This document shows, one piece after another, positions 3,891-25,024 of a stretch of 32,000 nt of DNA. Position numbers and translations under genes: made by a program. Each line of letters opens with the position of its first letter. Within the stretch, counting starts at the first letter, position 1. The stretch lies in the NCBI GenBank assembly GCA_023818895.1, contig JAMWCX010000002.1, positions 90,001-122,000 of the forward strand, written 5' to 3'. The DNA is from Candidatus Omnitrophota bacterium (GTDB taxonomy: Bacteria > Omnitrophota > Gorgyraeia > 2-01-FULL-45-10). Under the pieces are notes generated by a model that was not told where the DNA came from, made no database searches, and saw only the letters and a program-made list of their open reading frames with translations.

Positions 3891-3905
3891 ACCGCCCCTC
3901 GATTA

Positions 3906-6018: not shown

Positions 6019-6133
6019 AAACTCCTGTAATTCGTAAGCAGTAAATTAAGTCCTGCGGACCTTAGACATACGAGTCGCCTAAGGCGATGCCGTTTAGGAT
6101 TTACAAATTACTAGCTACAAATACTTAGTTTTT

Positions 6134-6742: not shown

Positions 6743-6754
6743 AGGATCTCCTTA

Positions 6755-7975
6755 TTACTCAAACCTTGCCTTTATAGAATCAAGATGCTTCTGAAGCCCT
6801 TCTATCCCCGCTATCTTCTCAAGCGGTTCACGTATCTTTTCCAAAGCCTTCTTGGTGTAGGACAATATATGAGAGCTTTTGTAAAAATCAGAAACGCCGA
6901 GCCCTGAAAAGAAACGGACACTTCCGCCTGTCGGCAGTACGTGGCTCGGGCCGGCAACGTAATCCCCGACAGCCACCGGCGTATATGGGCCTAAAAATAT
7001 AGCGCCGGCATGGCTTATCTTATTAGCTATCTTTTTCGGATTGTTTGTCAATATCTGCAGGTGCTCTGCCGCCAGCATGTTCGCCACCTCAGCGGCCTCA
7101 TCCATATTTTTAACAAGTATGATATAACCTTTGATGTTCTCATCCTTGAATGTCCGCGCCAGTTTTTTAGAGTTCGTTATCAATATTGACAACCCCATGA
7201 AATGCTCGGCCTGGGCCTCCAGATCGGCCTTTATGAAATTTATGTTTGAAAGCTGGTTAGCTATAATGACCACCTCTGTAGGGCCAGCGAGCATATCTAT
7301 ATCGCAATAGCCAAAGACTTGGCGCTTGGCTTCCGTCACATAGGCGTTGCCGGGTCCTACGATCTTGTCGACTTTCGGTATGGTTCTTGTGCCATAAGCG
7401 AGCGCCGCTATAGCCTGAGCTCCTCCCACCTTGTATATCTCGTCCACCTTAAGCAGATCGGCTACCACGAGTATATGTGGATCCACCGACTTATATGCGT
7501 TAGGCGGGGTAACAAGCACGATCTTTTTTACGCCAGCCATCTTCGCCGGGATAACTGTCATATAGACGCTTGAGACCAGCGGCACGGTCCCGCTGGGAAC
7601 ATACACGCCGACAGTATCAAGGGGCATGATCTTTTCGCCGAGTAGAACACCATCCGCGTCCTTTATCTTCCAGGATCTCTTGAGCTGCTTTCTGTAGAAT
7701 TTATTTATATTCTCCATGACTATCTTAAGCGTAGACACAAATTCTGGCTTGATGTCCTGGTAAGCTCCTGACACCTCGCCCTCGGATACTTTCAGGTCCT
7801 TTACAGAAAGCCTTACCTTGTCGAACTTGCGCGTGTACTTTAGCACAGCTTCATCTCCGTAAAGTTTGACATTCTCGAGAATGCCCCTAACGCTTTCGCT
7901 TACGCGCTTGCTCCTTCCCGAGTTTCGTTCACAAAGTTTTCGGAATTGTTTGCTGCCAACCCTGACCAGCTTCAT
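6755..7975 (-). CDS. hisD: Histidinol dehydrogenase
   Basis: 406-aa ORF with VPSGTVPLVSSVYMTVIPAKMAGV..GGAQAIAALAYGT..GPGNAYVTEAKR..DMLAGPTEVVIIA..QAEH..GDYVAGPSHVLPT. Its ATG overlaps the alaS stop (ATGA). Confidence 0.92.
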   Translation of the reverse strand: MKLVRVGSKQFRKLCERNSGRSKRVSESVRGILENVKLYGDEAVLKYTRKFDKVRLSVKDLKVSEGEVSGAYQDIKPEFVSTLKIVMENINKFYRKQLKRSWKIKDADGVLLGEKIMPLDTVGVYVPSGTVPLVSSVYMTVIPAKMAGVKKIVLVTPPNAYKSVDPHILVVADLLKVDEIYKVGGAQAIAALAYGTRTIPKVDKIVGPGNAYVTEAKRQVFGYCDIDMLAGPTEVVIIANQLSNINFIKADLEAQAEHFMGLSILITNSKKLARTFKDENIKGYIILVKNMDEAAEVANMLAAEHLQILTNNPKKIANKISHAGAIFLGPYTPVAVGDYVAGPSHVLPTGGSVRFFSGLGVSDFYKSSHILSYTKKALEKIREPLEKIAGIEGLQKHLDSIKARFE

Positions 7976-10554: not shown

Positions 10555-11023
10555 CGATTATGCCATCTATTATCCTTTGGATAATATCATAAGCAAATCC
10601 ACGCCTCGCAAGAAAATCATGCAATCTCTTAAGCGCTTTCTTGCTTTCTATCTTCGCAAGCCGCCCAAACTTCTCCTTTGCCATACTAAAAGCCACCTTA
10701 TATTCGTCATAATCAGCGTCCTTCTCCGCTAAGGTGGCTTCTATTATACTGTCACTTATGCCTTTTTCTTTCAGCTCTCGGCGCAGGACCATCTTTCCCA
10801 TCGGGTTAAAGCGCATACGAGATTCAACCCATAGGCGAGCAAACTTTGCATCATCGATTTCGCCACATCTTTTTAAAAAACCTACGGTGTCCTCTATAAC
10901 AGAAGGGCCGTATCCTTTAAGCTTGAGCCTGGCGCGGATCTCGGCTTCGCTTCGGGGCCTTGAACGCAATAGGCTATAGGCATTATTCCGGGCCCGTCTC
11001 AATATTCTATCGTCAGATCGCAA
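10541..11023 (-). CDS. recX: RecA regulator RecX
   Basis: 160-aa ORF directly after recA. RARNNAYSLLRSRPRSEAEIRARLKLKGY plus repeated three-helix segments is typical of RecX. The start codon is TTG (plus strand caa at 11021..11023). Its 3' end overlaps the alaS start by 14 nt. Confidence 0.82.
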   Translation of the reverse strand: MRSDDRILRRARNNAYSLLRSRPRSEAEIRARLKLKGYGPSVIEDTVGFLKRCGEIDDAKFARLWVESRMRFNPMGKMVLRRELKEKGISDSIIEATLAEKDADYDEYKVAFSMAKEKFGRLAKIESKKALKRLHDFLARRGFAYDIIQRIIDGIIDENG

Positions 11024-11119
11024 CGTAGGAAAATCCTAAATTATGAATATGAAACGCCAACTGAATGTTTATCTCAAAGTTACAAACTGCGTTGAAATCT
11101 CGATATCTGGATTCAGCTC

Positions 11120-12190
11120 TTACCTGATCGCCTTCTCAAGAATTTCTTTCTCTATCTTGGCTATCAGCTTGGGGTTTTGCTTAAGATACAGCCTGGCATT
11201 CTCCTTGCCTTGCCCGATCTTCTCCTCACCGTAAACAAGCCATGAACCGCTCTTTTTCAATATGCCCAGAGACTCACCCATATCGATTACGCTGCCCGCC
11301 CTTGAAATGCCCTCATCGAACATTATGTCAAATTCGGCCTTTCTGAAAGGTGGCGCCACCTTGTTCTTCGCGATAGACGCCCTGACGCGGTTGCCGACCG
11401 CCTCCTCACCTTTCTTAAGCGACGCTATTCTGCGCAGATCTATCCGGACGGAGGCATAGAATTTAAGCGCTCTTCCTCCCGGCGTCGTCTCGGGGTTGCC
11501 GAACATGACGCCTATCTTTTCGCGTATCTGGTTTATGAATATAACGCATGTCTTCGATTTCGATATAGCGCCTGACAGCTTCCTTAGCGCGTGGCTCATA
11601 AGACGGGCCTGTAGCCCCACATGTGATTGGCCCATTTCACCATCTATTTCGGCCTTAGGGGTCAGCGCGGCAACCGAGTCAATGACTATGACGTCTATGG
11701 CGTTCGATCTGACAAGTGTTTCGGCTATATCAAGCGCCTGTTCTCCTGTATCGGGTTGAGACATCAGCAGATTGTCGAGATTAACTCCCAGCAGCTTAGC
11801 ATATGCCGGATCAAAAGCGTGCTCGGCATCTATGAACGCCGCTGTGCCGCCTGCCTTCTGGGCGTTTGCGATTATGCTCAAGGTGAGCGTCGTCTTGCCG
11901 CTGGACTCCGGTCCGAATATCTCCACCACCCTGCCGCGCGGCACACCACCGACTCCGAGCGCCACATCCAACGCAACAGATCCAGTCGGTATTGCGGGGA
12001 CATCCAGCTTGAAGTCCTGGCCGAGCTTCATGATCGACCCTTTGCCAAACTGTTTCTCTATATGCTCCATAGCCAAATCAAGCGCCTTCATCTTCTGTTC
12101 CTGACTCTTCTCAGCCTGCGTAGTATCCCTCTTCTCTTCTCGTAATACTTCTTTAGTGCCGTGACCCTCTTTTACCTTGGTCTTTACCAT
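11120..12190 (-). CDS. recA: Recombinase RecA
   Basis: 356-aa ORF with [37 protein letters not shown] (Walker A)..[35 protein letters not shown] strong Shine-Dalgarno sequence, GGAGAGGAAGG, precedes the ATG at 12190. This start gives a ~30-aa K/E-rich N-terminal extension, and an internal alternative start is M34 at 12091. Confidence 0.95.
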
Positions 12191-12263
12191 TTCCTTCCTC
12201 TCCTTATACTTTATAGTGGTTTGTAATCTATTTATTATAATTATATTCTATTTAGGGAAATAT

Positions 12264-12293
12264 ATTATACAGGCATCACCTCCTTCTTGTAAA
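12264..12293 (-). promoter_or_regulatory. Candidate sigma70-type promoter for recA (TTTACA-N18-TATAAT)
   Basis: The minus strand reads gacTTTACAagaaggaggtgatgcctgTATAATatat. The -35 element is plus strand tgtaaa (12288..12293) and the -10 is plus strand attata (12264..12269), about 70 nt upstream of the recA ATG. This is a sequence match only. Confidence 0.4.
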
Positions 12294-12427
12294 GTCATTT
12301 CCCCTCCACTATATAAGATGCAAAATCGATTAAAAATATTGCAGGAAATCTCAAAATTCTTGCGATAGTTACTGTTTCTACGCCGATCGCCCTGCCGGCA
12401 TATGGGCGATAGAAAGTATTAAAAATT

Positions 12428-13000
12428 TTATGCTTGGAGATAAGATTCGTGGAGTTTGGTGTAAATGGAACCCTGCGAGGTCAAGGTACTCTGAAAGAGG
12501 ACAACAGATTCGACGCGGTGCGAAGGCACCGCGGAGAGATTGAAATTCGCCTCTACCGACGCCATCTTTTCTTTAAGCTTTGATCTGTTAACCGAAGATC
12601 TGACGCGGCCGATTGTAAGGTGCGGGCTAAAGGGCCTGTCTTCTTTCGCAAAGCCTATCTTAGAAAGCGCTTCATCTATCGAGGAGGCCAATTCCAAAGC
12701 CTCTCCGACTCCTTTCCCAAGGCCCACCCATATAACACGTGGATAATCTATCTTTGGGAAAGCGCCTATATCTTTCAACGTGATATCAAATTTCTTTGTC
12801 GAGGCAGCGACAGCATCAAGTGCGCTTTTTACTTCCGAAACTTTCGTCTCAGATACCTCACCAAGGAATTTCATCGTGACATGAATTATCTCGGGCCTAA
12901 CCCACTTTACATCAGCACCGGAGTATTTAAGATGGGACTCTATCTGACCAAGGATTTTCTTGATTTCATCCGAAACTTCTATAGCAATAAATGTCCTCAT
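12428..13000 (-). CDS. thpR: RNA 2',3'-cyclic phosphodiesterase (2H phosphoesterase, LigT/ThpR family)
   Basis: Two HxT/Sx motifs (HVTMKFLG and HLTIGR) at the spacing expected for the 2H fold. I trimmed the track ORF (to 13051) to the ATG at 13000 (MRTFIAIEV). This is the canonical family N-terminus and sits 2 nt after the cinA stop. Confidence 0.8.
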   Translation of the reverse strand: MRTFIAIEVSDEIKKILGQIESHLKYSGADVKWVRPEIIHVTMKFLGEVSETKVSEVKSALDAVAASTKKFDITLKDIGAFPKIDYPRVIWVGLGKGVGEALELASSIDEALSKIGFAKEDRPFSPHLTIGRVRSSVNRSKLKEKMASVEANFNLSAVPSHRVESVVLFQSTLTSQGSIYTKLHESYLQA

Positions 13001-13002
13001 AA

Positions 13003-14235
13003 TCAGATGCCGGTTCTTATCATATCTAAAGCCGCTTGCGACGTCTGCCATTTTATATCAGCGCGAGAACCAACAAAGTGAAATTCTTTAACCATGCTTA
13101 CCTCATCAGTAACCAAAGCGATATAGACCAAGCCCACGGGTTTACTCTTGGTGCCGCCGGTCGGACCGGCGATGCCTGTTACCCCAAGCCCAACATCCAC
13201 ATGCATAATCGATTTTATACCCCTTGCCATTTCTAGAGCGACTTGTTTTGAAACCGCACCATACCTCTTCAGCGTCTCCGCAGAAACTCCGACGTGCTTG
13301 ACCTTCACTTCGTTCGCGTAAGGAACGGCCCCCCTGATAAAATACCTGGAACTTCCGCTGACATCCGTCAGTCTGCTGGAAATAAGTCCTCCGGTACAAG
13401 ACTCAGCGACAGCTATGGTCTTGTTCTCTGCAATAAGCCTATGCCCTGCCGCTTGTTCGAGCGTCTCCTCGTCATAGCCGAAAATATATTTATCAAGCCT
13501 TGAGCGGATTTTATTTTCAATAACCGCGATGGCCTTTTCGGCAGCGATTCTGTTTTTGGCTTTCGCCATTATCGTCAGGTCAACCTCTCCAAGCTTCGCG
13601 TATATTCCGACTGTAGTAGGCGGCTTGAGCTCAAGAAGGTCCTTTACCATAATATTGATCTGCGATTCAGGAAGGCCTGTCGTCTTAATTGTCCTTGTCC
13701 TGAAAACATATCCGGACCTGAAGTTTTTCTTAAGATATGGGACAATCCCTTTCTCGAATATGGGTTGCAACTCTCTGGGAGGACCTGGAAGGCAAATCAA
13801 CACTTTATCGCGATGCTCGATGATAATACCGGGAGCGGTGCCAACTCTGTTGGCGACCCATTTGGCGCCTTGGGGTATATACGCCTGCCTCTCATTACCA
13901 TCCGGTACCGCCAAGTGGCGAGCCTTGAAGTGTCTTTTTATATTTTTAAGGATTGACCTCTTGAGCACAAGTTTCTTACCCAGCATAGCCGCTAGGGTCC
14001 TTATCGTTATGTCATCAACGGTAGGGCCGAGTCCGCCAGTCAACATCACAATATCTGATCTTATGAGGGCCTTGCGGACAAGCTGCGCAAGCCTGTGGGG
14101 GTTATCGCCAACGGTGGTCTGGTAATAGACGTCTATTCCAAGTTCGGCGAGTCTCTGGGAAAGATAGGCAGCGTTGGTATTCACAATGCGGCCGAGAAGC
14201 AACTCCGTGCCTATAGATATGATTTCCGCTTTCAT
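13003..14235 (-). CDS. cinA: CinA-family protein (MoCF-binding N-terminal domain plus nicotinamide-nucleotide amidase PncC-like C-terminal domain)
   Basis: 410-aa ORF with MKAEIISIGTELLLGRIVNTNAAYLSQRL..TGGLGPTVDDIT at the N-terminus and AESCTGGL..GVTGIAGP in the C-terminal half. It sits upstream of recA, as in many bacteria. Confidence 0.9.
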   Translation of the reverse strand: MKAEIISIGTELLLGRIVNTNAAYLSQRLAELGIDVYYQTTVGDNPHRLAQLVRKALIRSDIVMLTGGLGPTVDDITIRTLAAMLGKKLVLKRSILKNIKRHFKARHLAVPDGNERQAYIPQGAKWVANRVGTAPGIIIEHRDKVLICLPGPPRELQPIFEKGIVPYLKKNFRSGYVFRTRTIKTTGLPESQINIMVKDLLELKPPTTVGIYAKLGEVDLTIMAKAKNRIAAEKAIAVIENKIRSRLDKYIFGYDEETLEQAAGHRLIAENKTIAVAESCTGGLISSRLTDVSGSSRYFIRGAVPYANEVKVKHVGVSAETLKRYGAVSKQVALEMARGIKSIMHVDVGLGVTGIAGPTGGTKSKPVGLVYIALVTDEVSMVKEFHFVGSRADIKWQTSQAALDMIRTGI

Positions 14236-14362
14236 ATGAAATCATTATACCATCCGCCCTCTTAATCAAATAGCGAAAATTTTTGGCATCAAAGATACAT
14301 GGCGCCAAATAGACGCATTACGACAAGCTGAGCTGGGCCGAAAAGATTTCCCGACAAACATA

Positions 14363-14437
14363 ATAAAACCCGGGCTGGGGAGAGGATGGGCCAACTCGGG
14401 GGAAGCCCCCTCACCCCAGCTTGACCCGGGTTTTTAT
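14363..14437 (-). terminator. Rho-independent terminator downstream of the giant ORF (bidirectional in form)
   Basis: AAAACCCGGG (14365..14374) pairs with CCCGGGTTTT (14425..14434). Inner pairing is CTGGGG (14375..14380) with CCCCAG (14414..14419), plus a GGGGG-AAG-CCCCC core (14398..14410). On the minus strand the stem is followed by TTTTATTATG. It starts about 37 nt after the giant ORF stop codon. Confidence 0.7.
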
Positions 14438-14473
14438 TCATGGCGCCACCGCTTGATGCGCTTTTACCCTTTC

Positions 14474-17400
14474 TTAGGCTGCAATCAGGAAGTTCTCCAT
14501 CTTTATCCTGAAGCGATCAAGCTCATCAACGTCAATCCTGACCAGCGGCTTGAACCTGAGTATAGCCCTCATCGCAAACGCCATATTGTTCTGAGCGTCA
14601 TCCTTGATAAGCGCCAGTATCTCGTCATCTATGGCAACTCCGGACATCAACTTATAATAAGAGGCTATGGCCTGTCTGTTATTAGCCATAACGGCTCTGG
14701 CTAATCCTATGACTCCTTCCAAATAAAGATAATTAACCCCAACAAGCTTATCGTCGAGTATAAGCAGGCTTGAGCGAAGCGCCGTTTCTTTATCCGAACC
14801 GTTCCAGATATTTTTATCCTCGAAATCCTCTTTCGCAAGCACCGCGACCAGCTTGTCCTTGGAGGCTCCTTTGTTTGTCACTGCCCTGCGTATTTCGTCC
14901 GGTTTCATTATCGCCACACCCCCTCCCTCGAAAAGCGGCGCAAGAGCCAGTCTTATCTGAACGAGCTCTGTCTCATCGCCATCTCTCACAAAAAGGTTCT
15001 CAGACAAAAGTATCTTGCTTCCGTCAGCAGTAAGCTTTCCATTGAGGCCGCTTTCGAACAGAGAACGTATCTTTACAAGTATATCGCCTTCTCCAGAAAT
15101 GATCGGCTCAGCCCTATACACAACGCCTCTTCGCCTCTCACCGCCTGTACCCGGATACATGGAAAAATCATCGATATCTATATTCTGTCTTACGTAAGAA
15201 ATACCACTCTTCCTCCCCGCGATATTCAAAACTTCGTCCAAATACTGCAATTGGCGCTTGACGAACATAATTCCTACTGGATTATTCCTACATTCTTCGG
15301 CACTGTAGGGCGTGACATCGTTTACAAACAGGCGGCCGCCGTTCTTACTCAGATTTCGCAGTATAGGCTCCATAATCTTATATATTTTTCTCACGAAATA
15401 ATCCTCTGCTGCCATCTCCACCTTTTTTATCTTGTCAGCATCTGAGTGTGCTATTTGCGATTGCTTAAAGAAATCTAACGCTATAGTATCGGAAACAGGA
15501 TCTACAGCTGTATGCAGGACCGCCAGCATCACTATATCGTCAAAAACCCTATCAGAGATAGCGTCGTATGAACTAAACGCCTCTATCTCTTTGTCCAGCC
15601 CAAAGTTCCTATGTAAACGCTCCTGAGAATAAAGGCTTTTGGCGCCGGTATCGATGACGGTTGTCCTCATGCCTATCTTGGCGAGAAGCACCGGAAGATA
15701 GTCAAGGTTCCCTGGTCCTACCACAAGAACCCTTTCGCCTTTCTTGAGGCCCATATTGGCCACCTTCTTCAAAATATGTTTTTTCATATTCTCCGTGAAG
15801 AAATTATCTCCGGATATCCTGGCTATCTCCTCTATGGCCGCTTTGATATCAGCCGTCTCCACTACCGATGATAAGGGCGACTCAGACAAACTTTTTTGTG
15901 TTAGCTGCTGGTTTGATTTTCCCGCAACCAACTTCTCCCTAATTGCTCGATAGCCGTTAATAAGAGCCTCGCTGTTCCTGATAATATCATCGCGCTTTTC
16001 GCCGTCATACTGGGTTATGAGACGGCGCTGTTCCTCCGCCAATAAGCGCTCTTTTTCAAACAATTCTTTCAGCAGCAGATTATCTTTTAAGGAACTCCAT
16101 TCTTGAGGCGGCACAGCGAGCTTTCCATGCGCGCCAACTCCGCCTTCGTCGCCCAGATATATGCAATCTGGGTTTCCTTTACCATCAAGCGCGACCTCTA
16201 CACGATCTGCCAAAAGCATGTTTATGAATTTCTGAATTCTCATTAATGATGATTCGGCTAGCGCGGCTTTTTCGGGTGTCCAAACATTGTCGGCAAGCAT
16301 AATCTGTGCGATTCTGGCGCCTTCGAGGGCGTTTGTGAAATAATGCTCCAGAGATCTTATAAGGCATCTGATTAAAATGGGCTCGGGGAATGAGGATTCC
16401 TTTACCGCAATGCTGTTCTGTTGCGCATCCGGCAAGCGCTTCGCTGTACCATCTAAAATTATCGGCTCTTTGGCGCCGACCACAGACCCTTTTCTGGTAT
16501 AAACGTTGAGATAACCGCTTTTAAGCGGCACCCTCTCATACAAAAGCCCTTCATCCGATATGCGGTCCAAATCGCCGAATATAATAAGCTTGGCTCCATC
16601 CCGCATACCATTTTTACTCACCATTTTTTTGCGCAGGGCATCATGCCATTTAGCCGAATCCACGCCGGCAGGGCAAGTATAGAAGAAATACAGCACATCA
16701 TATCCGGATAGGTCGGTGTCTTCTGCGAGAAAATCGCCTTTAATGAACCTAACGTTTCGGGCACGCTTCACCAGCCCAAGATCCTTCTGATGTGAAAGCG
16801 CAGCCCTGTGAAGGTTCTCATTCCATTCGATGCCTGAAACATCCTTAAAATGCTTCGAGGCCAAGAAACAAAACATGCCATTTCCGCTGCCCAAGTCGCA
16901 TATATTAGCGGAAGGGTTAATCAGCTTTATGTAATGTATTATCTGCAAAGCTATGCTAGCGGGGGTCCACAAAAATATGCCGTGTTTTTCTGAATCATGT
17001 TTGTCCCCCAGATCTTTATCAACGCAGGCATTCTCAATGAGGCGTACATCCCAACTATAACACTCCTCTTGAGCTCTTCTAATCGCGTATTCCATTATAA
17101 GCGCCGAGCCGTCTTTGTCTGGCGGCTGCGTTATGTGCGGGGTGCCGGGGCCCCAGCCGGGGTTTCTTACGGGCATTGACTTCCCTATCACCAGCGAAGA
17201 ATCAAGATAACCGCTCTTTACCCATGCACCAACAGCATCAAGCAACCGTCCTGCCTCACAGAGTTTCTCCAGCTCATTAAGCGACTTTTCAGATCCTTCC
17301 AGACATTTCAGCATTTCTTTCTTGTCTACAGAGGCGCTATCGGTATGATATATTATCGCGATGAGACCGGTCATAGAATCCCTGACAAGATCAATAAATT

Positions 17401-20400
17401 CATCGGTCGCTATTCCATCGAACTCTTCATTAATGCTGGCTATTATATTCACAGCATGGGAATGCGCTCCGCTGATATCCCCTCTCTCTATATAAGCCCT
17501 GATCAGATTAATCTTGTCCCTGCATATCTTCGCGAATCGCCGAAATGCAACGTATAAGGCCTCCTCCTCAAAACACCTATGCAGATTTGCCCTGTTTATG
17601 GCAAACGCCTTAGCAACTTCAAACCGGCCAGCCTCGTCGAGACCAAAGTCAGAGGCCAGCGCCCTGACAAGCTCTGTCCGTGCGATCTTATCCAAGCGCC
17701 TTATGTATTCTCTATTCGAGTATTTATTCAATACAGCCATGGTGGCGGACAGGTCTTTTAATCTATTCATCCTGAGGACACGTTTTATGTCGTCTACTGC
17801 CGCTATGAGACGGAGCGTGCTTATGGCCTTGAAAGCGCTCTTTTCCATCGACACAAACGCTGCTAGATAACATAACATCTTAAAAGAAGTGGCGCGCGGC
17901 GAACCGCGTATAAGCTGCTTGGCCTTGATGAACGACTCAAAGGTCTCGATAAATGTGTCTTCCTTGAGGTAGCGCCTATTGCCGCCGGCGAGCCTTTCGG
18001 TTTCATATTTATCCCTGAACGATTCCATAAATTCGGCCAGAAGCGCCGCTTCCCCTATCTTATCCTTTAGTATCCCCGCCCAGAACTTAGCCCTGCTGAT
18101 GTGGACGGACTTTTCCTTTTCTGCCGAAGCATTCAGGACGCCTTCCGTTTCACGTATAAGCGGCCACAGAATCGAATCCAAACCCTCCAGGTCTGGCTCA
18201 TTTAGCTGCGACTTGATCCTCCTGTACAGACCATATGCATTATTGCGGGCAGAGCGATAATCTCCCTTATCAAGTAATATATTTATCTTATTCATCCTTG
18301 ATACAAGCTCCTTATTATGGAGAGCCACCATATCCCGATAAGGTTCCACTCGACCGGTCTTTAGGTAATGCAGCATGCTATCGATATTCTCCACCCTAAG
18401 GCCCAAATATCTTTTGGCTATGGGTAAAAGGTGCTTTAAGCTTGCGGTATCTTCCAAATCGATAAGGTCTATGGCTGTTTCAAGCGTTATGCGAGCGAGT
18501 CGCTTTTCCTCCACAATAACACCGGCCAGCCCGTATAGGATATGGCTTATATTTCCTGTATTCACCGCTGATGCGTCTGAAGCGGTGACGGCAATCTCTT
18601 TCGTAACCATATCTATGTAACCGGACATAACATCTCTTTCATCAAGCAAGCTTTCTATCTGATCATCCAGCGACCGACCTACCTGCCAGCGTAAATCGAA
18701 CTTTTTATCGATATATATCGGCACCAATGTCTTCGCCTCCTCGCCCGCGCGTATGTAACTATGCTGCTGTATTACAATCTTGCCATCTTTCTCATAAAAC
18801 CTTACCTTATGCTTTCCAGAAATGATCCTCTTTTTCAATATTTCTTCACGGGCGCCTGACACCGCATTCATGGCTCCTACAAGGGCGGCGTTTGCGGCAG
18901 GCTCATTGTCTTTCGATATCATAGCCAGGGCTTTATCGAATTCTTCCTTCACGCGGCGATGGTACTCTGCCATACGTATATCAGATGGCAGCGCCTTAAG
19001 GCGTTCTTCAAATACCTTTATTTCTTTCAACAATCCATCCACATAATTTAACGTCTCGATTTTCGCAGATACTAACGCATCTTTATCGGAATGCCTTTTT
19101 GCCTTCATCCTCTTCGCCAGCAGCACCAAAAGTCTTAAGTTGGCTTCAAAGAGAGTCTCGAAATAGTCCTTGTAAATAGATTCTGCGCTAACTTTTTCCT
19201 CGAATGTGACAGATGGTCGGCCTAATTCTTCATCGGGTGGTTGCGTTATATGCGGCGTACCTGGTCCCCAGAACTTGTTGGGACGTTCCTTTTCAGTATC
19301 TGACTTTGAGAGGGTACCGGCTGGCAAGGCTGCCAGTCCTTCAATGCGTCTGAGGATATGCTGTGGGACATCCTCATTCTTACCGTCCTCATATGCCCGC
19401 CAAATATTTTCATCCAATCCGAGTCTATCACTTATATCTTTCTCCGAAAGCCTGAGTAACTTTCTTACCAAAACCAACCTCTCGCCCATACTATGGGCTT
19501 TTTCCAGATTTTCGTTGACAAAGTTTTCCGTGGCTTCCCAGAAGGCACCCGCGGCATCTTTGGCCACATCAAGATACTGCTCATGATAAAATTCCCTCAT
19601 CTTATCGTCATCTATTTTATATATCATCAGACGTATGGCTATCAAAACGGGCCTTACATCGTCCCGTATGGCCCACCGTATCCTTTGAGGGTCCTTTGCC
19701 CTCTCTGCGTCATCTATCCTTGCCTCCGCGACCTGCAAGGCATTGTCTATCTCCGCCAAGAGCTCGTCCTGGCTGATCTCTTCTTCCTCAGCATCATCTT
19801 CGAGACTGTCACCGCTTTCAGCCAATACTTCGGTCTCCTCTTCCGATTCCACGCCCTCTTCGCCTATTTCTTCTATCACCTGCTTCAGTTTAGATGACAA
19901 AAGTCCATCAAAGTGACCGGGACGTTTTTCATTCCTCAAATACGACGGGTAGTTTTCCGCAAATATGGCCTCCTGTATCATTCGCGCCTTCTCATGGCCG
20001 ACATGCGGACAGATGATTTCATGGAAGAGATACTCCTCGAGGCAAGAATCGCTTTTCTCTAGTACATTAAGGACTTCTATTGCAAGACCTATAGTTCTGG
20101 GATATCTTTCTCTGAGCAGTTGCTGGAGGTTGTTCAGGCAGGCATCGTTAACAACTTTATCGGGCGCCCTCGGCATTGTGTTAAATCCGAGCAGCCATCC
20201 CTTCCCGCCCTCTCTGTAGGCCGGACCCGATAGCACCACAGCCCTAAATTTTACCACGTCCATGTCTCCAGCTTCTTTTATACGGTTCGACAACTCTTTC
20301 CTGAGACTTAAAGGTAGGTTCGAACTTTCTATCCTCTTCAATATGCCTTTTATCCTTTCGGAAAATTGTGTACGAAAACTGGCGGAAGGCAACTTTTGTT

Positions 20401-23400
20401 GGGGGCTGGTGATTAGCGCTTCGTAAAGGGCCTTTGGATCTCCCCGCGCAATCTGGCCGTAGTCAGCGGTTTTATAAATTGGTATGCTTACAACAAATCT
20501 TTCACCATTTATGGTCACTTCCCTGCGGTCGGTTCCCGCAAGCGCTGAACTCGGAACAAGCTCATCGTCTCTCAGCTTCCTGACAGTTATAAGGTACATT
20601 GATATATCATCTGATGCGACATTAGTAAAAGGAGTGAGCGATGAGACCGCCATGCCGCTTCTATTAAGCTTTTCTATTATATTGTGATAATGGCTTAATA
20701 GATCGCCTGTTTTTGGTACCATTATGGTCGCAATAAGGGCGCCGCCTGTTTTTAGCTGGTTATAAAAATTGGCGATGGCGCGTATAGGGTCATCAGCATA
20801 CTGAAGAGTAAAGAAAGATGTTATAAGATCCGCTTTCTCAAGAGGCCTGAAAACGGCGGGGTCGCATACATCTCCATTTATAAACTTATACCTGCCTTCC
20901 TTCTCCAGGGTATTTCTTTTCTCGGAAAAAGAGCGCCATTCCTCTTCGTCCAAAGAAGAATCTTTTCTATCCCACCTATTTATATCTATACCGTATGACT
21001 TAAGATGCGGATTTATCCATGAGGCCTCAACAGCCGCCCTGCCTATGCCGCATCCGGCGTCGATATAAACCAGCCCGCCCGACATCACCTGAGAAAAAAC
21101 CTCTACCATAGACATCTGGGCGAGGAAACTTTGATAATCCGAAAGGCCTCTTGATATATTTATCACCGTCTTATTATTTGATCCTGCCCTAATGGGCTGC
21201 GACCCGCTAAAATCGGGTAAGACTCGGTACCACCTATCCTGTGCTTTCTCACCGCCTTCCTCATCCTCCCTTGAAAGGAGAGCCATTCCCAACGCGGATA
21301 TGGCGAAAACACTCCAACTATCAAGCAGGCTTATAGTAAGGCCGGCTTTCAAAAAGAGAGGCGCTATAATAAAGGCGACGGTCGATGTGGCCGCTCCGAG
21401 GATCAACATAAATGATATGTTATCTGAAAATCCATCTTTGCGGGAATCCAACGCTATTTTTCGAGGCTCATCCGAAGGCTCTATGGAAGCTTCCCAGTCA
21501 AGTATAAAGCGATTATGGACCTTGTGATATACTATTTTGTTTATTCGGGCATATTGCTCCGCTCTTGAGATCGCGAATTTGATACTGCTGGAGATCACAT
21601 CTTGTTCCGCAACGTTCAACATACCGCGATCCTTGAAAATACTAAAAACTGTGCTTAGGTTTCTTATATCCTGAATTACGGCATTCAGCTCGTTTTCCGA
21701 AAGTCCTACCGACATTAACTCATCGCAAGTTTCAGATATATCGTTTACCTTGCTCAATATCTTCTCATAATCCGAGGGGGTGATCGGCTTTGGGAATGCC
21801 TCCCACATGGCCTTAAGTTCCAGACAACCTTTCTTAAGACGGCCCGCCCACTCCTTCAGCCTCTCTATAGTCAAGCGCTTCTCTTTTTCGAAAAGCGGAG
21901 AGGCCAATAGATACCACAAGTCGTTCAAAATTTTAGTGTACCATCTCTCTCTGAAGCCGGAAAGCAGCTTATCATAATCGTCCACTATCTCCTCAACGCC
22001 TCTGACCTCTATGGACTTTTCTCCGTATAGCTTTCTTCTCGTCACGCTCTCCAAAGACATGCCTTTTGTTTTCTCGTTTTCAGTCCTGGCTACGAGGACC
22101 GTCTCAGGTTCAGGATCAAAACCAAACCGGCCAATCGCATCTACCGAAAGCAAAAGAAGGTTGCCTTCCTTGTCAAGTATCCTGATCTGGCCTAAACGTT
22201 GCGAATCTTTGGTAAAACTGGAAAGCGATATCACCGTATTCACCCCCAGCTCTATGCGCCTTAACTGCCTCTCTTTATCACCACCTTCCGCAACGGCTAT
22301 ACCGCCGAGCTCTGGTGTGCCAAAAGGTGTTATAGCCCACTCTTCTTTGGTACGAGGATTCAACAAACCGAATATCTTAGGAAGCGGCCGTGTATCCTCT
22401 TTAAGCCTTTGCGAAAGATGCTCAAACACCACATCAAGCGGCTCATCGGGCCCTGTATTTAACAATTCTTCGATGTTATTTAAAATCTTTTGCTTAGTAA
22501 TCTTTTCGCCAAAACCATTTATACCGTTACTCTTTTTTATTTTATCAGCATCCCTTTCTCTTTGCACAATGGCCCTTATGGCATTTATGCGGTCCTCTCT
22601 TTTTACACCATTATCCTCACCAGCTGTCTCCATAAGAAGCCAAATCTCTTTCATAAGCTTCAAAAGCCATAAGCCCAAGAGAGTCTTCTGCCTGAATTCA
22701 TTCTCCATGGCATCAAGCGCCTCTATCCCTCTAAGGCCGCGCCATTTCAGGTTCTCCGGAACAGCTCCCGCTATATAAATATTATGGTGCTTATCTTCCG
22801 CGTACACGAACCTCATATTCTCAACTATAAATTCCGCCGTATCCAATAGCTTCGGGTGAAAACGATACCAAAGCTGCCACTGACTGTCGATGGTCGTTGA
22901 ATGTCTATTAGACATCTTTATCAGCATATCTTCAAAATGCTTGGCCTCCTCTATATCTTTTCGCAGCCTGGGAGGCGTGTTGTCGTCCACCGTCATTCTC
23001 GCCAGGGCCTTAAGGGATTTTAAAACGTTAGGCCCACCCAGGATCGGATTCGAAAGCCACGTAAAAGTTAATCTATCGTCACCGAGCATGGCCTGCAGGA
23101 AAATATGCTCGGTCTTACCCATTATCATCGATAGGCGCGGCAGCTTGCCAGAATCGATGTGTTCCCTTAGGAGATCTATGGCCTCAAGGCCATATTCTTC
23201 CTTGGTGCGCCCTATATAATCACCTATAAACTGAAGAGTTCTGTAGCCATTTTTATGAAGCCAGTCGAGAACCACCTTCAGCCTTACAACATTTCCGTGA
23301 ACCTCAGAGACTACCGCTTCGCGCTCAACATCGGCTGTTCTTATGTGCTCTAACCGCCTTCTGTTAAATTTCATCAGACTTTTAAGGCGAGTGATGTCAT

Positions 23401-25024
23401 ATACAGTGGAACGCACATCCACTTTCACGAGCCTGCATAATGGCAAAAACCCCAATATCTTCTTGGAGCCCGTTAAAGCCAGAGCTCTATTCACTTCCTC
23501 TATAATACGTTCTATCCTTTTCTTCCTCTCATCTTCACTGACACTTCCAGGGCCGTCGTCAGCTATTATGAGCGCGAAAGAACGCTTCGTGGAGCTTTCT
23601 ATCCTGTTCTTCAAAATTTCTATATTGTATTTTGCCCCGGCAGAATAGGCAGACTTGATAACGAGTATATCGTCAGGCCTGTTCGGACATTCTATCAACT
23701 CCACATTTTCGCTGAGAGCCTTCCCCTTAAGCCAGTCACGCCAATATATCATCTCACCCGTTCTCTCATCCTTCGTGTTGTTATGAGCGTATGCCGCTAT
23801 GAGGCTATCTATTTCCTCATCACTTAAATGCTCCCATGACTTCTGGTCAAGCAGCCAGTGACCGGCAGGACTTTTGGAAATGCCGAGCGCGATGGCCATA
23901 TATCGGCAAGCTATTGGGATAAGAATATTATATATTGCCAGAGAAAACCCAAATACGATATCGCTCATCGGCAAGAACCAGCCGAAAGCCGCCAACGAAA
24001 CGAAGTTAATCGTAAGCCATGGCAGGCAGAATGTAAGAGGGACGGCCGAAAGCTCTATCTTTACCCTGAACATCCCGCCAAATATTGCGTTGCTATGTAC
24101 CCATTCATGTAGATATACGACCCACTGGAAGAAGAGTGGCATTCGCCTTAAGGCATCCTTATCCGCGAAGAGGGCGCTATTGATACGAGTCATCTGGCCG
24201 TTCTTCAGCATTTTTTCTACGGTGAAGGAAAAATAGGACAGCTTGCCCTTGGCGTCTGCGCGCACGCTATTGTCTGTCACGGCGTCTAACACGCGTATAT
24301 TCTCTGCTCTGTCAAAGGGCTTGATGAGCCCATGGTCTTTTCTCGCATGGCGAAAGGAAAGGGCGTCTTCCATAAAATAGGCGGTGAAAACGGGCAATAG
24401 GCTCATGAATAAAACATAGAATATAGACAAGGCTACCGAGAAAATGCTTTGATGGACGGATGTTACAGAAATGAGCAAAAGGGTGCTTATTACGCCTATC
24501 AGCGCCGCCATCCTTATCTTTTGGGGTTCCGCGGCAGCCCCTTCAGGCGTCTGTGTGTTGCCAGCCGTATCGGATTTTCTTAAAACCTGTTTACAAACCG
24601 ACCCAAGCCGGCCAAAAGCTTCCTCACTGTATCCTTCAACATTCCGCAAAGCGATATTCGGGTCGAAATATCTTAGCGCGTAGTCGGATGGAAAACTTAT
24701 CAGGGCTTCACTAAAATTATCGGCAACACTATATACGACTCCGTTTTCGTTAAGCCACTTCTTATGATGCCGAAGTATGCGATCTATGCTTTCAATTGCG
24801 ACATCTCCGCTGTTGATATGCCCGTTCTTTTCTATGGATATCTCTATAAATTTAGCTACCGCGCGGATATGAGACTGAGCATTTCGCAGGAAAAATTCAG
24901 GGGCAAGTTTATCAGGATGTGCCCATACTATATCCTGGAAAATAAAAGTTATTATTAATATGGCGGAGATTAACTTAATTAATGGATGGAACTTAGTGGG
25001 CTTATTTTGGTTAAATGCGTACAA
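14474..25024 (-). CDS. Giant 3,516-aa membrane-anchored multidomain protein of unknown function (HExxH membrane module, three SAM-methyltransferase-like domains, embedded HTH)
   Basis: A single uninterrupted 10,551-nt ORF in mid-GC DNA. Multiple independent enzyme-like motifs are in frame (see the sub-features). The start is TTG at 25024..25022, with a TAA seven codons upstream in frame. There is no other ATG, GTG or TTG in frame in the first 40 codons I checked, and no Met residue before 172. I recognise no Shine-Dalgarno sequence (upstream gatagtaagaaaaaaTTG). Confidence 0.9.
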   Translation of the reverse strand: MYAFNQNKPTKFHPLIKLISAILIITFIFQDIVWAHPDKLAPEFFLRNAQSHIRAVAKFIEISIEKNGHINSGDVAIESIDRILRHHKKWLNENGVVYSVADNFSEALISFPSDYALRYFDPNIALRNVEGYSEEAFGRLGSVCKQVLRKSDTAGNTQTPEGAAAEPQKIRMAALIGVISTLLLISVTSVHQSIFSVALSIFYVLFMSLLPVFTAYFMEDALSFRHARKDHGLIKPFDRAENIRVLDAVTDNSVRADAKGKLSYFSFTVEKMLKNGQMTRINSALFADKDALRRMPLFFQWVVYLHEWVHSNAIFGGMFRVKIELSAVPLTFCLPWLTINFVSLAAFGWFLPMSDIVFGFSLAIYNILIPIACRYMAIALGISKSPAGHWLLDQKSWEHLSDEEIDSLIAAYAHNNTKDERTGEMIYWRDWLKGKALSENVELIECPNRPDDILVIKSAYSAGAKYNIEILKNRIESSTKRSFALIIADDGPGSVSEDERKKRIERIIEEVNRALALTGSKKILGFLPLCRLVKVDVRSTVYDITRLKSLMKFNRRRLEHIRTADVEREAVVSEVHGNVVRLKVVLDWLHKNGYRTLQFIGDYIGRTKEEYGLEAIDLLREHIDSGKLPRLSMIMGKTEHIFLQAMLGDDRLTFTWLSNPILGGPNVLKSLKALARMTVDDNTPPRLRKDIEEAKHFEDMLIKMSNRHSTTIDSQWQLWYRFHPKLLDTAEFIVENMRFVYAEDKHHNIYIAGAVPENLKWRGLRGIEALDAMENEFRQKTLLGLWLLKLMKEIWLLMETAGEDNGVKREDRINAIRAIVQRERDADKIKKSNGINGFGEKITKQKILNNIEELLNTGPDEPLDVVFEHLSQRLKEDTRPLPKIFGLLNPRTKEEWAITPFGTPELGGIAVAEGGDKERQLRRIELGVNTVISLSSFTKDSQRLGQIRILDKEGNLLLLSVDAIGRFGFDPEPETVLVARTENEKTKGMSLESVTRRKLYGEKSIEVRGVEEIVDDYDKLLSGFRERWYTKILNDLWYLLASPLFEKEKRLTIERLKEWAGRLKKGCLELKAMWEAFPKPITPSDYEKILSKVNDISETCDELMSVGLSENELNAVIQDIRNLSTVFSIFKDRGMLNVAEQDVISSSIKFAISRAEQYARINKIVYHKVHNRFILDWEASIEPSDEPRKIALDSRKDGFSDNISFMLILGAATSTVAFIIAPLFLKAGLTISLLDSWSVFAISALGMALLSREDEEGGEKAQDRWYRVLPDFSGSQPIRAGSNNKTVINISRGLSDYQSFLAQMSMVEVFSQVMSGGLVYIDAGCGIGRAAVEASWINPHLKSYGIDINRWDRKDSSLDEEEWRSFSEKRNTLEKEGRYKFINGDVCDPAVFRPLEKADLITSFFTLQYADDPIRAIANFYNQLKTGGALIATIMVPKTGDLLSHYHNIIEKLNRSGMAVSSLTPFTNVASDDISMYLITVRKLRDDELVPSSALAGTDRREVTINGERFVVSIPIYKTADYGQIARGDPKALYEALITSPQQKLPSASFRTQFSERIKGILKRIESSNLPLSLRKELSNRIKEAGDMDVVKFRAVVLSGPAYREGGKGWLLGFNTMPRAPDKVVNDACLNNLQQLLRERYPRTIGLAIEVLNVLEKSDSCLEEYLFHEIICPHVGHEKARMIQEAIFAENYPSYLRNEKRPGHFDGLLSSKLKQVIEEIGEEGVESEEETEVLAESGDSLEDDAEEEEISQDELLAEIDNALQVAEARIDDAERAKDPQRIRWAIRDDVRPVLIAIRLMIYKIDDDKMREFYHEQYLDVAKDAAGAFWEATENFVNENLEKAHSMGERLVLVRKLLRLSEKDISDRLGLDENIWRAYEDGKNEDVPQHILRRIEGLAALPAGTLSKSDTEKERPNKFWGPGTPHITQPPDEELGRPSVTFEEKVSAESIYKDYFETLFEANLRLLVLLAKRMKAKRHSDKDALVSAKIETLNYVDGLLKEIKVFEERLKALPSDIRMAEYHRRVKEEFDKALAMISKDNEPAANAALVGAMNAVSGAREEILKKRIISGKHKVRFYEKDGKIVIQQHSYIRAGEEAKTLVPIYIDKKFDLRWQVGRSLDDQIESLLDERDVMSGYIDMVTKEIAVTASDASAVNTGNISHILYGLAGVIVEEKRLARITLETAIDLIDLEDTASLKHLLPIAKRYLGLRVENIDSMLHYLKTGRVEPYRDMVALHNKELVSRMNKINILLDKGDYRSARNNAYGLYRRIKSQLNEPDLEGLDSILWPLIRETEGVLNASAEKEKSVHISRAKFWAGILKDKIGEAALLAEFMESFRDKYETERLAGGNRRYLKEDTFIETFESFIKAKQLIRGSPRATSFKMLCYLAAFVSMEKSAFKAISTLRLIAAVDDIKRVLRMNRLKDLSATMAVLNKYSNREYIRRLDKIARTELVRALASDFGLDEAGRFEVAKAFAINRANLHRCFEEEALYVAFRRFAKICRDKINLIRAYIERGDISGAHSHAVNIIASINEEFDGIATDEFIDLVRDSMTGLIAIIYHTDSASVDKKEMLKCLEGSEKSLNELEKLCEAGRLLDAVGAWVKSGYLDSSLVIGKSMPVRNPGWGPGTPHITQPPDKDGSALIMEYAIRRAQEECYSWDVRLIENACVDKDLGDKHDSEKHGIFLWTPASIALQIIHYIKLINPSANICDLGSGNGMFCFLASKHFKDVSGIEWNENLHRAALSHQKDLGLVKRARNVRFIKGDFLAEDTDLSGYDVLYFFYTCPAGVDSAKWHDALRKKMVSKNGMRDGAKLIIFGDLDRISDEGLLYERVPLKSGYLNVYTRKGSVVGAKEPIILDGTAKRLPDAQQNSIAVKESSFPEPILIRCLIRSLEHYFTNALEGARIAQIMLADNVWTPEKAALAESSLMRIQKFINMLLADRVEVALDGKGNPDCIYLGDEGGVGAHGKLAVPPQEWSSLKDNLLLKELFEKERLLAEEQRRLITQYDGEKRDDIIRNSEALINGYRAIREKLVAGKSNQQLTQKSLSESPLSSVVETADIKAAIEEIARISGDNFFTENMKKHILKKVANMGLKKGERVLVVGPGNLDYLPVLLAKIGMRTTVIDTGAKSLYSQERLHRNFGLDKEIEAFSSYDAISDRVFDDIVMLAVLHTAVDPVSDTIALDFFKQSQIAHSDADKIKKVEMAAEDYFVRKIYKIMEPILRNLSKNGGRLFVNDVTPYSAEECRNNPVGIMFVKRQLQYLDEVLNIAGRKSGISYVRQNIDIDDFSMYPGTGGERRRGVVYRAEPIISGEGDILVKIRSLFESGLNGKLTADGSKILLSENLFVRDGDETELVQIRLALAPLFEGGGVAIMKPDEIRRAVTNKGASKDKLVAVLAKEDFEDKNIWNGSDKETALRSSLLILDDKLVGVNYLYLEGVIGLARAVMANNRQAIASYYKLMSGVAIDDEILALIKDDAQNNMAFAMRAILRFKPLVRIDVDELDRFRIKMENFLIAA
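15305..15772 (-). other. Giant protein aa ~3085-3240: third Rossmann/SAM-methyltransferase-like domain
   Basis: GERVLVVGPGNLDYLPVLLAKIGMRTTVIDTGAKSL is a glycine-rich loop followed by an acidic residue at the end of beta2. FDDIVMLAVLH and LSKNGGRLFVNDV follow. It is weaker than domains 1 and 2, and the GPG loop is atypical. Confidence 0.4.
16550..16972 (-). other. Giant protein aa ~2685-2825: class I SAM-dependent methyltransferase-like domain 2
   Basis: Motif I is ICDLGSGNGMF, post-I is VSGIEWNENL, motif II is VRFIKGDFL, and motif III is YDVLYFFY. AKLIIF follows. Confidence 0.65.
17117..17155 (-). repeat. Giant protein aa 2624-2636: peptide WGPGTPHITQPPD, copy 2
   Basis: The reverse complement reads TGG GGC CCC GGC ACC CCG CAC ATA ACG CAG CCG CCA GAC. 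The peptide is identical to copy 1, with 9 synonymous third-position differences. Confidence 0.95.
19232..19270 (-). repeat. Giant protein aa 1919-1931: peptide WGPGTPHITQPPD, copy 1
   Basis: The reverse complement reads TGG GGA CCA GGT ACG CCG CAT ATA ACG CAA CCA CCC GAT. Confidence 0.95.
19370..19489 (-). other. Giant protein aa ~1846-1885: XRE/Cro-C1-type helix-turn-helix-like segment
   Basis: GERLVLVRKLLRLSEKDISDRLGLDENIWRAYEDGKNEDVPQHILRRIEGLAALPAGTL follows the pattern of XRE HTH domains (GxRLxxxRxxxxLSxxxLAxxLGxxxxxxxxxExGK..P....L..IA..L). Confidence 0.5.
20690..21127 (-). other. Giant protein aa ~1300-1445: class I SAM-dependent methyltransferase-like domain 1
   Basis: Motif I is VYIDAGCGIG (verified at 21041..21070), post-I is SYGIDIN, and motif II is FINGDV. 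These are followed by ADLITSFFTLQYADDPIRAIANFYNQLKTGGALIATI. Order and spacing match the Rossmann-fold methyltransferase pattern. Confidence 0.7.
21275..21418 (-). other. Giant protein aa 1203-1250: internal pair of predicted transmembrane helices
   Basis: ISFMLILGAATSTVAFIIAPLFLKAGLTISLLDSWSVFAISALGMALLS is two ~20-residue hydrophobic stretches separated by K-A-G. Charged sequence lies on both sides (RKDGFSD before, SREDEEGGEK after). Confidence 0.5.
24095..24109 (-). other. Giant protein aa 306-310: HEWVH (HExxH zinc-metallopeptidase-type motif) within a hydrophobic block
   Basis: Plus strand atgtacccattcatg is, in reverse complement, CAT GAA TGG GTA CAT = H E W V H. It is flanked by the hydrophobic segments LFFQWVVYL and, downstream, LSAVPLTFCLPWLTINFVSLAAFGWFL and IVFGFSLAIYNILIPIACRYMAIALGI. 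Confidence 0.4.
24923..24985 (-). other. Giant protein aa 14-34: N-terminal signal peptide or signal anchor
   Basis: A basic n-region (NKPTKFH) is followed by the hydrophobic stretch PLIKLISAILIITFIFQDIVWA and then HPD. V-W-A fits the -3/-1 signal peptidase rule. Confidence 0.5.

Follow-up and report, generated by a model that had tools for sequence, protein, structure and literature searches.

A near-invariant 13-residue peptide recurs in linkers between modules of long Omnitrophota proteins and is a candidate recognition site

We analysed a 32,000-nt stretch of DNA from a Candidatus Omnitrophota bacterium (hereafter "the window"; assembly GCA_023818895.1, contig JAMWCX010000002.1), in which one minus-strand open reading frame (ORF; 14474..25024), whose 3516-residue translation provides the amino acid (aa) numbering used below, contains the 13-residue peptide WGPGTPHITQPPD twice at a spacing of 705 residues. 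We found that this peptide recurs, nearly invariant, between the modules of other long multi-domain proteins. It is probably a recognition site for a trans-acting protein, a reading that takes together the case in which the chain is cut at the motif and the case in which the motif is bound and left uncut.

The preliminary description of the window had reported an exact repeat with its coordinates and spacing, nine synonymous differences and non-conserved flanks, and all of this proved correct in every detail. The DNA of the two copies differs at 9 of 39 bases, at third codon positions throughout, and the longest exact repeat, 13 residues in the real protein, compares with 4-7 residues in 500 shuffles. 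Smith-Waterman comparison of 40-300 aa on either side of the copies gave scores within the shuffle range (z -1.2 to +1.3), and a self-BLAST of the protein returned the identity match alone. A recent DNA duplication or an assembly artefact, from which near-identical DNA including the flanks would be expected, was therefore rejected, and so was the ancient internal duplication of a larger domain, of which the flanks keep no residual similarity. Both copies are present in the same arrangement in an independent assembly (GCA_023818765.1), where the gene is 99.93% identical, so that the earlier argument against duplication and artefact, based on third-position-only divergence and unrelated flanks, is upheld. 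The window and contig JAMWDH010000047.1 of that assembly show only five differences over 7361 bases, every one non-synonymous (S1243A, M1247T, E1748K, K2071Q and M2133L, at nt 21298, 21285, 19783, 18814 and 18628). Copy 1 lies downstream of a weak XRE-type helix-turn-helix (HTH; Pfam HTH_19, aa 1847-1892), and the end of copy 2 is followed after 72 residues by CDLGSGNG, the S-adenosylmethionine (SAM)-binding motif of the second methyltransferase domain, in agreement with the earlier placement of copy 1 after the HTH and of copy 2 about 70 aa before motif I. A shorter exact repeat in the same protein, the 7-mer DADKIKK at aa 825 and 3195, is compatible with chance, since 13 of 500 shuffles reach a 7-residue repeat.

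Searches outside the window combined DNA scans with a protein profile. The scans used the back-translated relaxed core W-G-P-G-x-P-H-x-x-Q-P-P, in which nine positions are fixed. In metagenomic DNA they detected a 2661-aa ORF (81..8066; L004p) with five matching copies and a sixth that reads QPAD, two further long ORFs with two copies each and one contig-end fragment with a single copy; two more loci (L002 and L003) were rejected as chance matches in GC-rich DNA. A HMMER profile built from the two window copies was run against 1.84 billion representative proteins at E <=0.001 and matched six: the window protein, P0007, the L007 protein, a 241-aa fragment, P0011 and P0010. P0007 has 2011 aa and two copies (L008 ORF, 243..6278), and P0011 has 3398 aa and comes from an Omnitrophota metagenome-assembled genome (MAG). 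P0010 is from GCA_023818765.1, the assembly of the near-identical window gene, and its full-length form, P0015 (3441 aa), belongs to the MAG of the window protein, whose genome thus holds at least three copies in two proteins. The total is 18 copies in nine non-redundant long multi-domain proteins from at least five uncultured populations, and the named ones are Candidatus Omnitrophota. Assignment to the long multi-enzyme proteins of Omnitrophota is based on the NCBI names of P0013 (the window protein), P0015, P0011 and P0002-P0004, on the domains and on hydrophobic segments.

The copies vary little. Eleven of the 18 are identical and the other seven differ at one to three positions, by T5 to A or S, I8 to V, T9 to S, N or P, P12 to A, D13 to N and nothing else. 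Part of this invariance is ascertainment, since the DNA pattern fixed nine positions, although the positions left free are near-constant as well. Sixteen of the 18 copies have Gly before the Trp; a Pro or basic residue is common 2-4 positions upstream and acidic residues are common downstream, and several copies are preceded by RPRPG, RPHPG or PPRPG, which resemble proline-rich antimicrobial peptides (PrAMPs). The 20-mer form of the motif is RPRPGWGPGTPHITQPPDGT. A hidden Markov model of all copies, run unfiltered over ~33,000 residues of motif proteins and homologues, detected no decayed or weaker copies: the motif is found whole or not at all. The most divergent copy, WGPGSPHVSQPPD, is in a contig fragment of 62% GC (L005, 1..585, plus strand), where it directly precedes a ~160-aa C-terminal domain and the stop; this domain contains, by eye, a PD-(D/E)xK-like "DLVVEVPQ...K" pattern.

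No described motif matched. Pfam gave no family at E <=0.01, PDB sequences gave no match at E <=10 with the 24-mer query RRPRPGWGPGTPHITQPPDGTDAP, NCBIfam contained nothing like the motif, and a full-text literature search with sub-strings of the motif returned unrelated antibody sequences only. A scan of viral contigs detected no motif, the motif profile gave 19 candidates and no scoring match in a word-indexed database of 5.8 billion, and a profile of the two-module GNAT-methyltransferase region of L004p and P0007 found no divergent variants of the motif at homologous junctions. We conclude, as had been stated from the window sequence, that WGPGTPHITQPPD is an undescribed motif, and that it is rare and lineage-restricted.

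Selection acts on the peptide. Among the 13 copies for which DNA was compared (78 pairs), the motif codons were identical in 506 comparisons, synonymous in 420 and non-synonymous in 88, while the 13 flanking codons on each side gave 844-925 non-synonymous outcomes in 1014 comparisons. Outside the motif codons no nucleotide conservation was detected except the GG of the preceding glycine codon, at loci that range from 45% to 62% GC. The three copies of the window genome differ pairwise at 7, 9 and 11 third positions and nowhere else; the six copies of L004, a GC-richer gene, are close at the DNA level. Given the synonymous divergence and the non-conserved flanks, recent duplication, gene conversion and an element that acts as DNA or RNA are ruled out. 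Against a DNA-level element in particular stands the lack of conserved bases beyond the motif codons, and an RNA family was rejected on an Rfam search of the window, which was empty. The peptide itself is thus under strong purifying selection, as the preliminary description had proposed, and the codon comparison that it called for shows the synonymous excess across all 13 copies.

Every copy lies between two modules, and the types of module differ (HTH, helical, methyltransferase, GNAT-like and HAD-like). In the window, copy 1 separates the HTH-like helices from a 690-aa helical module and copy 2 separates this module from methyltransferase domain 2. L004p has its six copies within 1200 residues, dividing the chain into pieces of 170-520 aa; the order is a HEAT-like helical region, an unassigned 190-aa domain, a helical region, a GNAT-like module, a methyltransferase, a small unassigned domain and the remainder. 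The methyltransferase between L004p copies is a homologue of window domain 1, and P0007 has the same GNAT-like/motif/methyltransferase/motif order, so that the domain 1 module is flanked by the motif on both sides in these two proteins but not in the window protein. A HAD-like module (DxDxT signature, by eye) stands between the two copies of the L007 protein, and P0011 has its copy at the joint of a kinase-like and a small domain. Two of these proteins also hold repeats of other kinds: P0007 a near-exact ~30-aa repeat, LTLEEQFRRDDEEHSGELDNTR.SVREMLDGM, at aa 1205 and 1543, and L006p (ORF starting at 8747) ~65-aa tandem repeats between its two motif copies (aa 1290-1640).

We modelled the surroundings of both window copies with AlphaFold2 (AF2), using aa 1800-2060 (2-sequence alignment) and aa 2600-2870 (4-sequence alignment). 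The predicted local distance difference test (pLDDT) score was <50 around copy 1 (model residues 121-123 and 125-145, aa 1920-1944; no regular structure before the helix that begins at aa 1941) and 25-34 in the linker that holds copy 2 (model residues 1-38), with a confident methyltransferase fold from aa 2638; the adjoining methyltransferase and helical bundle reached 70-94. Both copies are thus predicted to lie in unstructured linkers, for which AF2 is supportive but not conclusive because the alignments are shallow. The modelling comparison that had been proposed earlier found the copies alike in lacking regular structure, and their neighbouring domains are unlike. Outside folded domains in these shallow-alignment models, conserved relative to its flanks and recurrent in non-homologous contexts, the peptide has the properties of a short linear motif.

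A homologue search with the whole window protein found five distant long mosaic Omnitrophota relatives (P0001-P0005), with modules 24-45% identical and none (0/5) carrying the motif. Where the window protein reads GKSMPVRNPG-WGPGTPHITQPPD-KDGSAL, P0001 reads "GKSMPGTDGVSAF"; relative to P0001, the motif is extra residues within "GKSMP...DG(V)SA". Similarly, P0007 lacks the motif before its GNAT-like module, where L004p has it, and the L007 protein lacks it before a methyltransferase of the domain 2 type. The motif therefore behaves as an optional cassette of ~14-19 residues in inter-domain linkers. It is conserved in sequence and not in position, because the closest homologues lack it at homologous junctions. 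The suggested search of databases and homologues showed recurrence at module borders, and positional conservation, which the functional argument had leaned on, was not found among P0001-P0005.

These features point to an external reader. The motif is near-invariant while the shared catalytic domains have drifted to 33-44% identity and junctions gain or lose it freely, from which we infer a slowly evolving reader outside the protein, that is, a conserved trans-acting partner that would read the motif as peptide and not as DNA or RNA. A site-specific protease would be the most plausible partner, because location, recurrence and module-sized spacing (170-520 aa in L004p) match polyprotein sites. 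By this analogy, site-specific proteolysis at the motif is our tentative reading, somewhat short of probable: cutting would separate neighbouring modules, the long ORFs would act as polyproteins, and in the window protein the 690-aa helical module would be freed and the C-terminal methyltransferase part detached from the N-terminal part with its membrane anchor. For independent reasons it has already been suggested that Omnitrophota giant proteins are cleaved, a proposal in which the points of cleavage are stated to be unknown.

Characterized sites resemble the motif in part. Sites of polyproteins and multi-effector toxins (viral 3C/NIa-type; MARTX) likewise recur in unstructured linkers of a long mosaic chain, in copy numbers that vary with the number of modules. 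In viral 3C/NIa-type and MARTX sites, specificity rests on ~1-8 residues and the sequence changes between sites, and MARTX linkers are cut by an internal cysteine protease domain; our motif, in contrast, has 13-14 near-invariant residues, stands at some junctions only, and no cognate protease was detected in or near the protein. Autoproteolysis of the GPS/GAIN kind occurs at H-[L/I]-↓-[T/S] inside a ~320-aa autoproteolytic fold, and it was rejected for the motif: 16 of the 18 copies read H-[IV]-[TS], but no flanking fold is conserved, and two copies, reading HIN and HIP, have no nucleophile. The motif also resembles the sites of PPEP-1/2/3 in bacterial adhesin linkers in being proline-rich, in having a Pro-Pro bond and in being repeated in linkers. 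The PPEP-1 consensus is VNP↓PVP. PPEPs are secreted enzymes whose recognition site spans six residues, P3-P3' (PMC12828418). Unlike their substrates, the motif offers the context TQP↓PD, in which Pro-Pro alone is common, has Pro-Ala in two copies and lies on what is predicted to be the cytoplasmic side.

Several observations weigh against this explanation. The 13-14 near-invariant residues are far longer and more uniform than typical protease subsites, and identity across lineages whose shared domains are 33-44% identical demands an unusually slow-evolving partner. The window protein has two motifs for at least 10 modules, so that most junctions are bare, and the nearest homologues are motif-free; cleavage is therefore no general requirement of this protein family. 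Among 185,579 species-representative genomes, which we assume to include Omnitrophota with the largest proteins, the relaxed core gave only one off-frame chance match (a Burkholderiales MAG), and the motif accordingly appears not to be a general Omnitrophota feature. The genes that neighbour the motif proteins in the window, L004, L006, L007, L008 and L009 are housekeeping genes, no shared protease or receptor was detected among them or among the domains of the motif proteins, and searches of these proteins and of the adjacent genes turned up no peptidase family. Finally, the low pLDDT of the linkers stems from very shallow alignments of 2-4 sequences.

Candidate enzymes within the proteins were also considered. 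The methyltransferase domains were rejected as modifiers of the motif, since motif-less homologues carry the same domains and so indicate no specific link. A small domain occurs right after the motif in both L004p (aa 1845-2000) and P0011 (L009, ORF 5656..15852; aa 3054-3200), with 35% identity between the two. It has a conserved Cys, HVWLE ~35 residues on and then an Asp (C...H-x-W-x-E...D), a pattern that recalls transglutaminase-like enzymes or hydrolases of the Cys/His/Asp kind; profile searches with it against Pfam, NCBIfam and the PDB gave no match, and a possibly related segment is present in P0015 of the window genome.

The nearest rival to proteolysis, in our judgement rather unlikely but well ahead of the others, is docking without cleavage, in which a scaffold, chaperone, localisation factor or modifying enzyme would bind the linkers, multivalently in multi-copy proteins, and leave the chain intact. 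The disordered linker, the peptide-level selection, the recurrence and the copy number of 1-6 fit it equally well, and constraint on every one of the 13 residues is easier to understand for a peptide that folds on binding than for a protease site. A Pro/Gly-rich sequence with a single Trp and a single His is, moreover, typical of extended ligands. However, no candidate receptor domain is common to all motif-bearing proteins, and the motif fits no known ligand class of peptide-binding domains, the PDB sequence search at E=10 being empty.

If the reader were the ribosome, the motif, a Pro-rich 14-mer with Q-P-P-D at its end, would be a nascent-chain signal at module borders. There it would slow or arrest elongation, or in the extreme case cause a peptide bond to be skipped, and would thereby pace how very long proteins fold, are targeted to the membrane or assemble. 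We regard this as unlikely, although it gives the best account of cross-lineage identity, which fits a partner as strongly conserved as the ribosomal tunnel or the peptidyl-transferase centre. In E. coli, EF-P-dependent stalling occurs where Asp follows Pro-Pro, and the position of the motif Trp, 11 residues upstream of the last Pro, resembles the W155-P166 spacing of SecM; both count in favour, as do the PrAMP-like residues ahead of several copies. Ribosome arrest peptides (SecM; RAPP/RGPP/QAPP; LPPP) are likewise ~10-17 residues long and strongly conserved, with a Pro-Pro end and an upstream Trp. Arrest motifs described so far frequently take the form X-(A/G)-P-P or LPPP, of which LPPP is found in Planctomycetota, a related phylum, and RAPP-like peptides form the C-terminal end of small upstream ORFs of sec/yidC genes, with the pattern [R/Q/H]-[A/G]-P-P (PMC10987492). 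The motif, by contrast, reads T-Q-P-P-D, outside that pattern, and is internal to 2000-3500-aa proteins instead of standing in a small upstream ORF; the window ORF is flanked by cinA and pgpA. It also abuts the preceding domain ("...FDIRSPDYIRKG-WGPG"), so that a pause would trap the end of this domain unfolded in the tunnel, no codon-level or mRNA-level feature accompanies it, and it fits none of the known classes of arrest peptide. Slightly less likely still is the bolder version in which a ribosome-read motif that halts or skips at module borders would deliver one very long ORF as paced or separate enzymes, a bacterial counterpart of arrest or "StopGo" sequences. The 2A "StopGo" peptide itself, whose consensus is D(V/I)ExNPG↓P and C-terminal, was rejected as a match: the consensus is absent, and "NPG" precedes copy 2 only, coincidentally.

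A partner-free structural role is improbable. A rigid "knuckle" of proline and tryptophan, which would space or orient the adjacent domains, would suit a Pro/Gly-rich, always inter-domain peptide whose lone Trp could pack on prolines. Linkers tolerate substitution, however, so that 13 near-invariant residues without decayed copies would be unexpected, homologous junctions work without the motif, and AF2 gives no confident structure. The structural cap suggested in the preliminary description is disfavoured on similar grounds: both copies have pLDDT <50 and no regular structure, next to unrelated types of domain.

We consider a recombination joint, a conserved coding stretch that offers micro-homology for module swapping as proposed for polymorphic-toxin boundary motifs, very improbable. 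The proteins are mosaic, homologous junctions may have the motif or lack it, and the six L004 copies are close in DNA. But the three copies of the window genome, with 7-11 of 39 bases different, are too diverged for homologous recombination, all variation in that genome is synonymous, which indicates selection on peptide and not on DNA, and no flanking DNA signature accompanies the motif; as a primary function, the recombination joint is largely refuted. The likeness to polymorphic-toxin boundary motifs is that of a short conserved peptide at the borders of exchangeable modules, as where the L005p copy directly precedes its C-terminal domain. VENN (CdiA) and PxxxxDPxGL (Rhs) are single-copy motifs that mark where the toxin tip begins and form part of larger conserved folds. 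Our motif, in contrast, can occur as many as six times in one protein, its flanks are unrelated on either side, and the modules that it borders are enzymes instead of toxins. Chance, recent duplication or assembly artefact has next to no probability, given shuffles that reach at most seven residues, nine synonymous differences, the 99.93% identical independent assembly and sixteen further copies.

Recognition of the motif by a trans-acting protein, with or without cleavage, bears on the question of whether Omnitrophota giant proteins are single chains or are cut into many products. In the main study of these proteins, missing information on cleavage points is said to block structure prediction and functional dissection. 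WGPGTPHITQPPD is the first concrete, sequence-defined candidate for a module border in proteins of that type. Even if the chain is uncut, a linker peptide that stays identical while neighbouring catalytic domains drift to 33-44% identity implies an unusually constrained partner. The scope is limited to six of 1.84 billion representative proteins, with the motif absent from the closest homologues and from the 185,579 species-representative genomes.

The motif proteins resemble the long multi-enzyme proteins of Omnitrophota in phylum, membrane anchoring and tiled methyltransferase, HATPase, GNAT and HAD-type domains; that class is described as "multi-enzyme metabolic cluster" and "Archaeovorins" in two reports (10.1101/2023.11.21.568195, 10.64898/2026.06.07.730766). 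The window protein is unlike Archaeovorins, which have many thousands to tens of thousands of residues and glycosyl transferase/hydrolase, peptidase and NUDIX domains: with 3516 aa it falls well short of the lengths that these reports class as giant, and Pfam recognises in it only methyltransferases and a weak HTH. The words "polyprotein" and "linker" do not occur in the main text of either report, and "motif" appears a single time in that of the former and never in that of the latter.

Table 1. Features of the motif-bearing ORF in the 32,000-nt window
Feature	Position (nt)	Strand	Residues and basis
Membrane-anchored multi-domain protein with both motif copies	14474..25024	-	3516 aa; ORF list and translation, Pfam
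Last pair of hydrophobic segments	21278..21406	-	aa 1207-1249; Kyte-Doolittle scan
Methyltransferase domain 1 module	20372..21160	-	aa 1289-1551; Pfam aa 1319-1431; class I
Weak XRE-type helix-turn-helix	19349..19486	-	aa 1847-1892; Pfam HTH_19 E=0.0034, below curated cut-off; short AF2 helices
Linker 1, HTH-like helices to helical module, holds copy 1	19205..19330	-	aa ~1899-1940
Motif copy 1, WGPGTPHITQPPD	19232..19270	-	aa 1919-1931
All-helical module between both copies	17171..19204	-	aa 1941-2618; helices in AF2 model
Linker 2, helical module to methyltransferase domain 2, holds copy 2	17114..17227	-	aa 2600-2637
Motif copy 2, WGPGTPHITQPPD, Gly in front	17117..17155	-	aa 2624-2636
Class I SAM methyltransferase domain 2	16487..17113	-	aa 2638-2846; Pfam Methyltransf_31/25 (aa 2704-2798); AF2 pLDDT 70-94

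The window ORF corresponds to NCBI MCM8790840.1 (P0013), which is of equal length and identical by eye except for the annotated M start, and which is named [quoted passage not shown] on a 442-kb MAG contig. Pfam recognises methyltransferases and the weak HTH only. The domain 1 module is 34% identical to L004p residues 1592-1852 (BLASTP), the helical module is homologous to internal parts of P0004 (25% identity), P0003 (24%) and P0001 (34%), and a third methyltransferase-like module, at aa 3055-3304, shows homology with P0002, as judged from a BLASTP alignment and by eye. A Foldseek search of the PDB with the AF2 model of domain 2 gave as its best matches the archaeal protein-lysine methyltransferase aKMT (5fad), DOT1L, Trm11 and 5bxy, an entry that 10.1101/2023.11.21.568195 also cites in connection with one domain of a giant protein of the Archaeovorin type. 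The hydrophobic segments end at aa 1249, and both motif copies lie in the one long soluble part downstream, on a single side of the membrane. This side is predicted to be the cytoplasm because it carries SAM-dependent methyltransferase and HTH domains.

The ORF lies directly between cinA and pgpA in an ordinary chromosomal setting. On one side are genes for CinA, LigT, RecA, RecX, AlaRS and his/trp biosynthesis, and on the other those for PgpA, PgsA, a MiaB-like protein, RodZ, FtsK and UppP; the opposite strand of the region has just short ORFs (60-126 aa) nested in the giant gene.

Both ends of the window protein are shared with relatives. Its C-terminal domain of ~200 aa (14477..15115, minus strand; aa 3304-3516), which ends in "...RFKP...IAA", is common to P0001 and P0004 at 32-38% identity. 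Another type of C-terminal domain ("...LGTSWIK...KVQEFA" and relatives) seems to end L004p, P0005, P0007, P0011 and P0015, partly by eye and with a BLASTP alignment for the L004p-P0005 pair only. From their sequences, then, the long proteins seem to have common tails. The N-terminal module (21863..24979, minus strand; aa 16-1054) has 40-43% identity with P0001, P0002 and P0003 and comprises a signal-anchor, hydrophobic clusters at aa 172-212 and 351-382 with HEWVH (HExxH) between them, and a metallophosphoesterase-like "EVHGN...GDYIGR" signature downstream of HEWVH. It may be a membrane metalloprotease-like unit, and the same HExxH module is also found in motif-less homologues. At the end of this module the peptide SLESVTRRK (aa 990-998, ~nt 22031..22057, minus strand) is kept in P0001 and P0002, in P0001 even across a ~300-aa insertion, and is thus another short, conserved peptide at a boundary, this time where the contexts are homologous.

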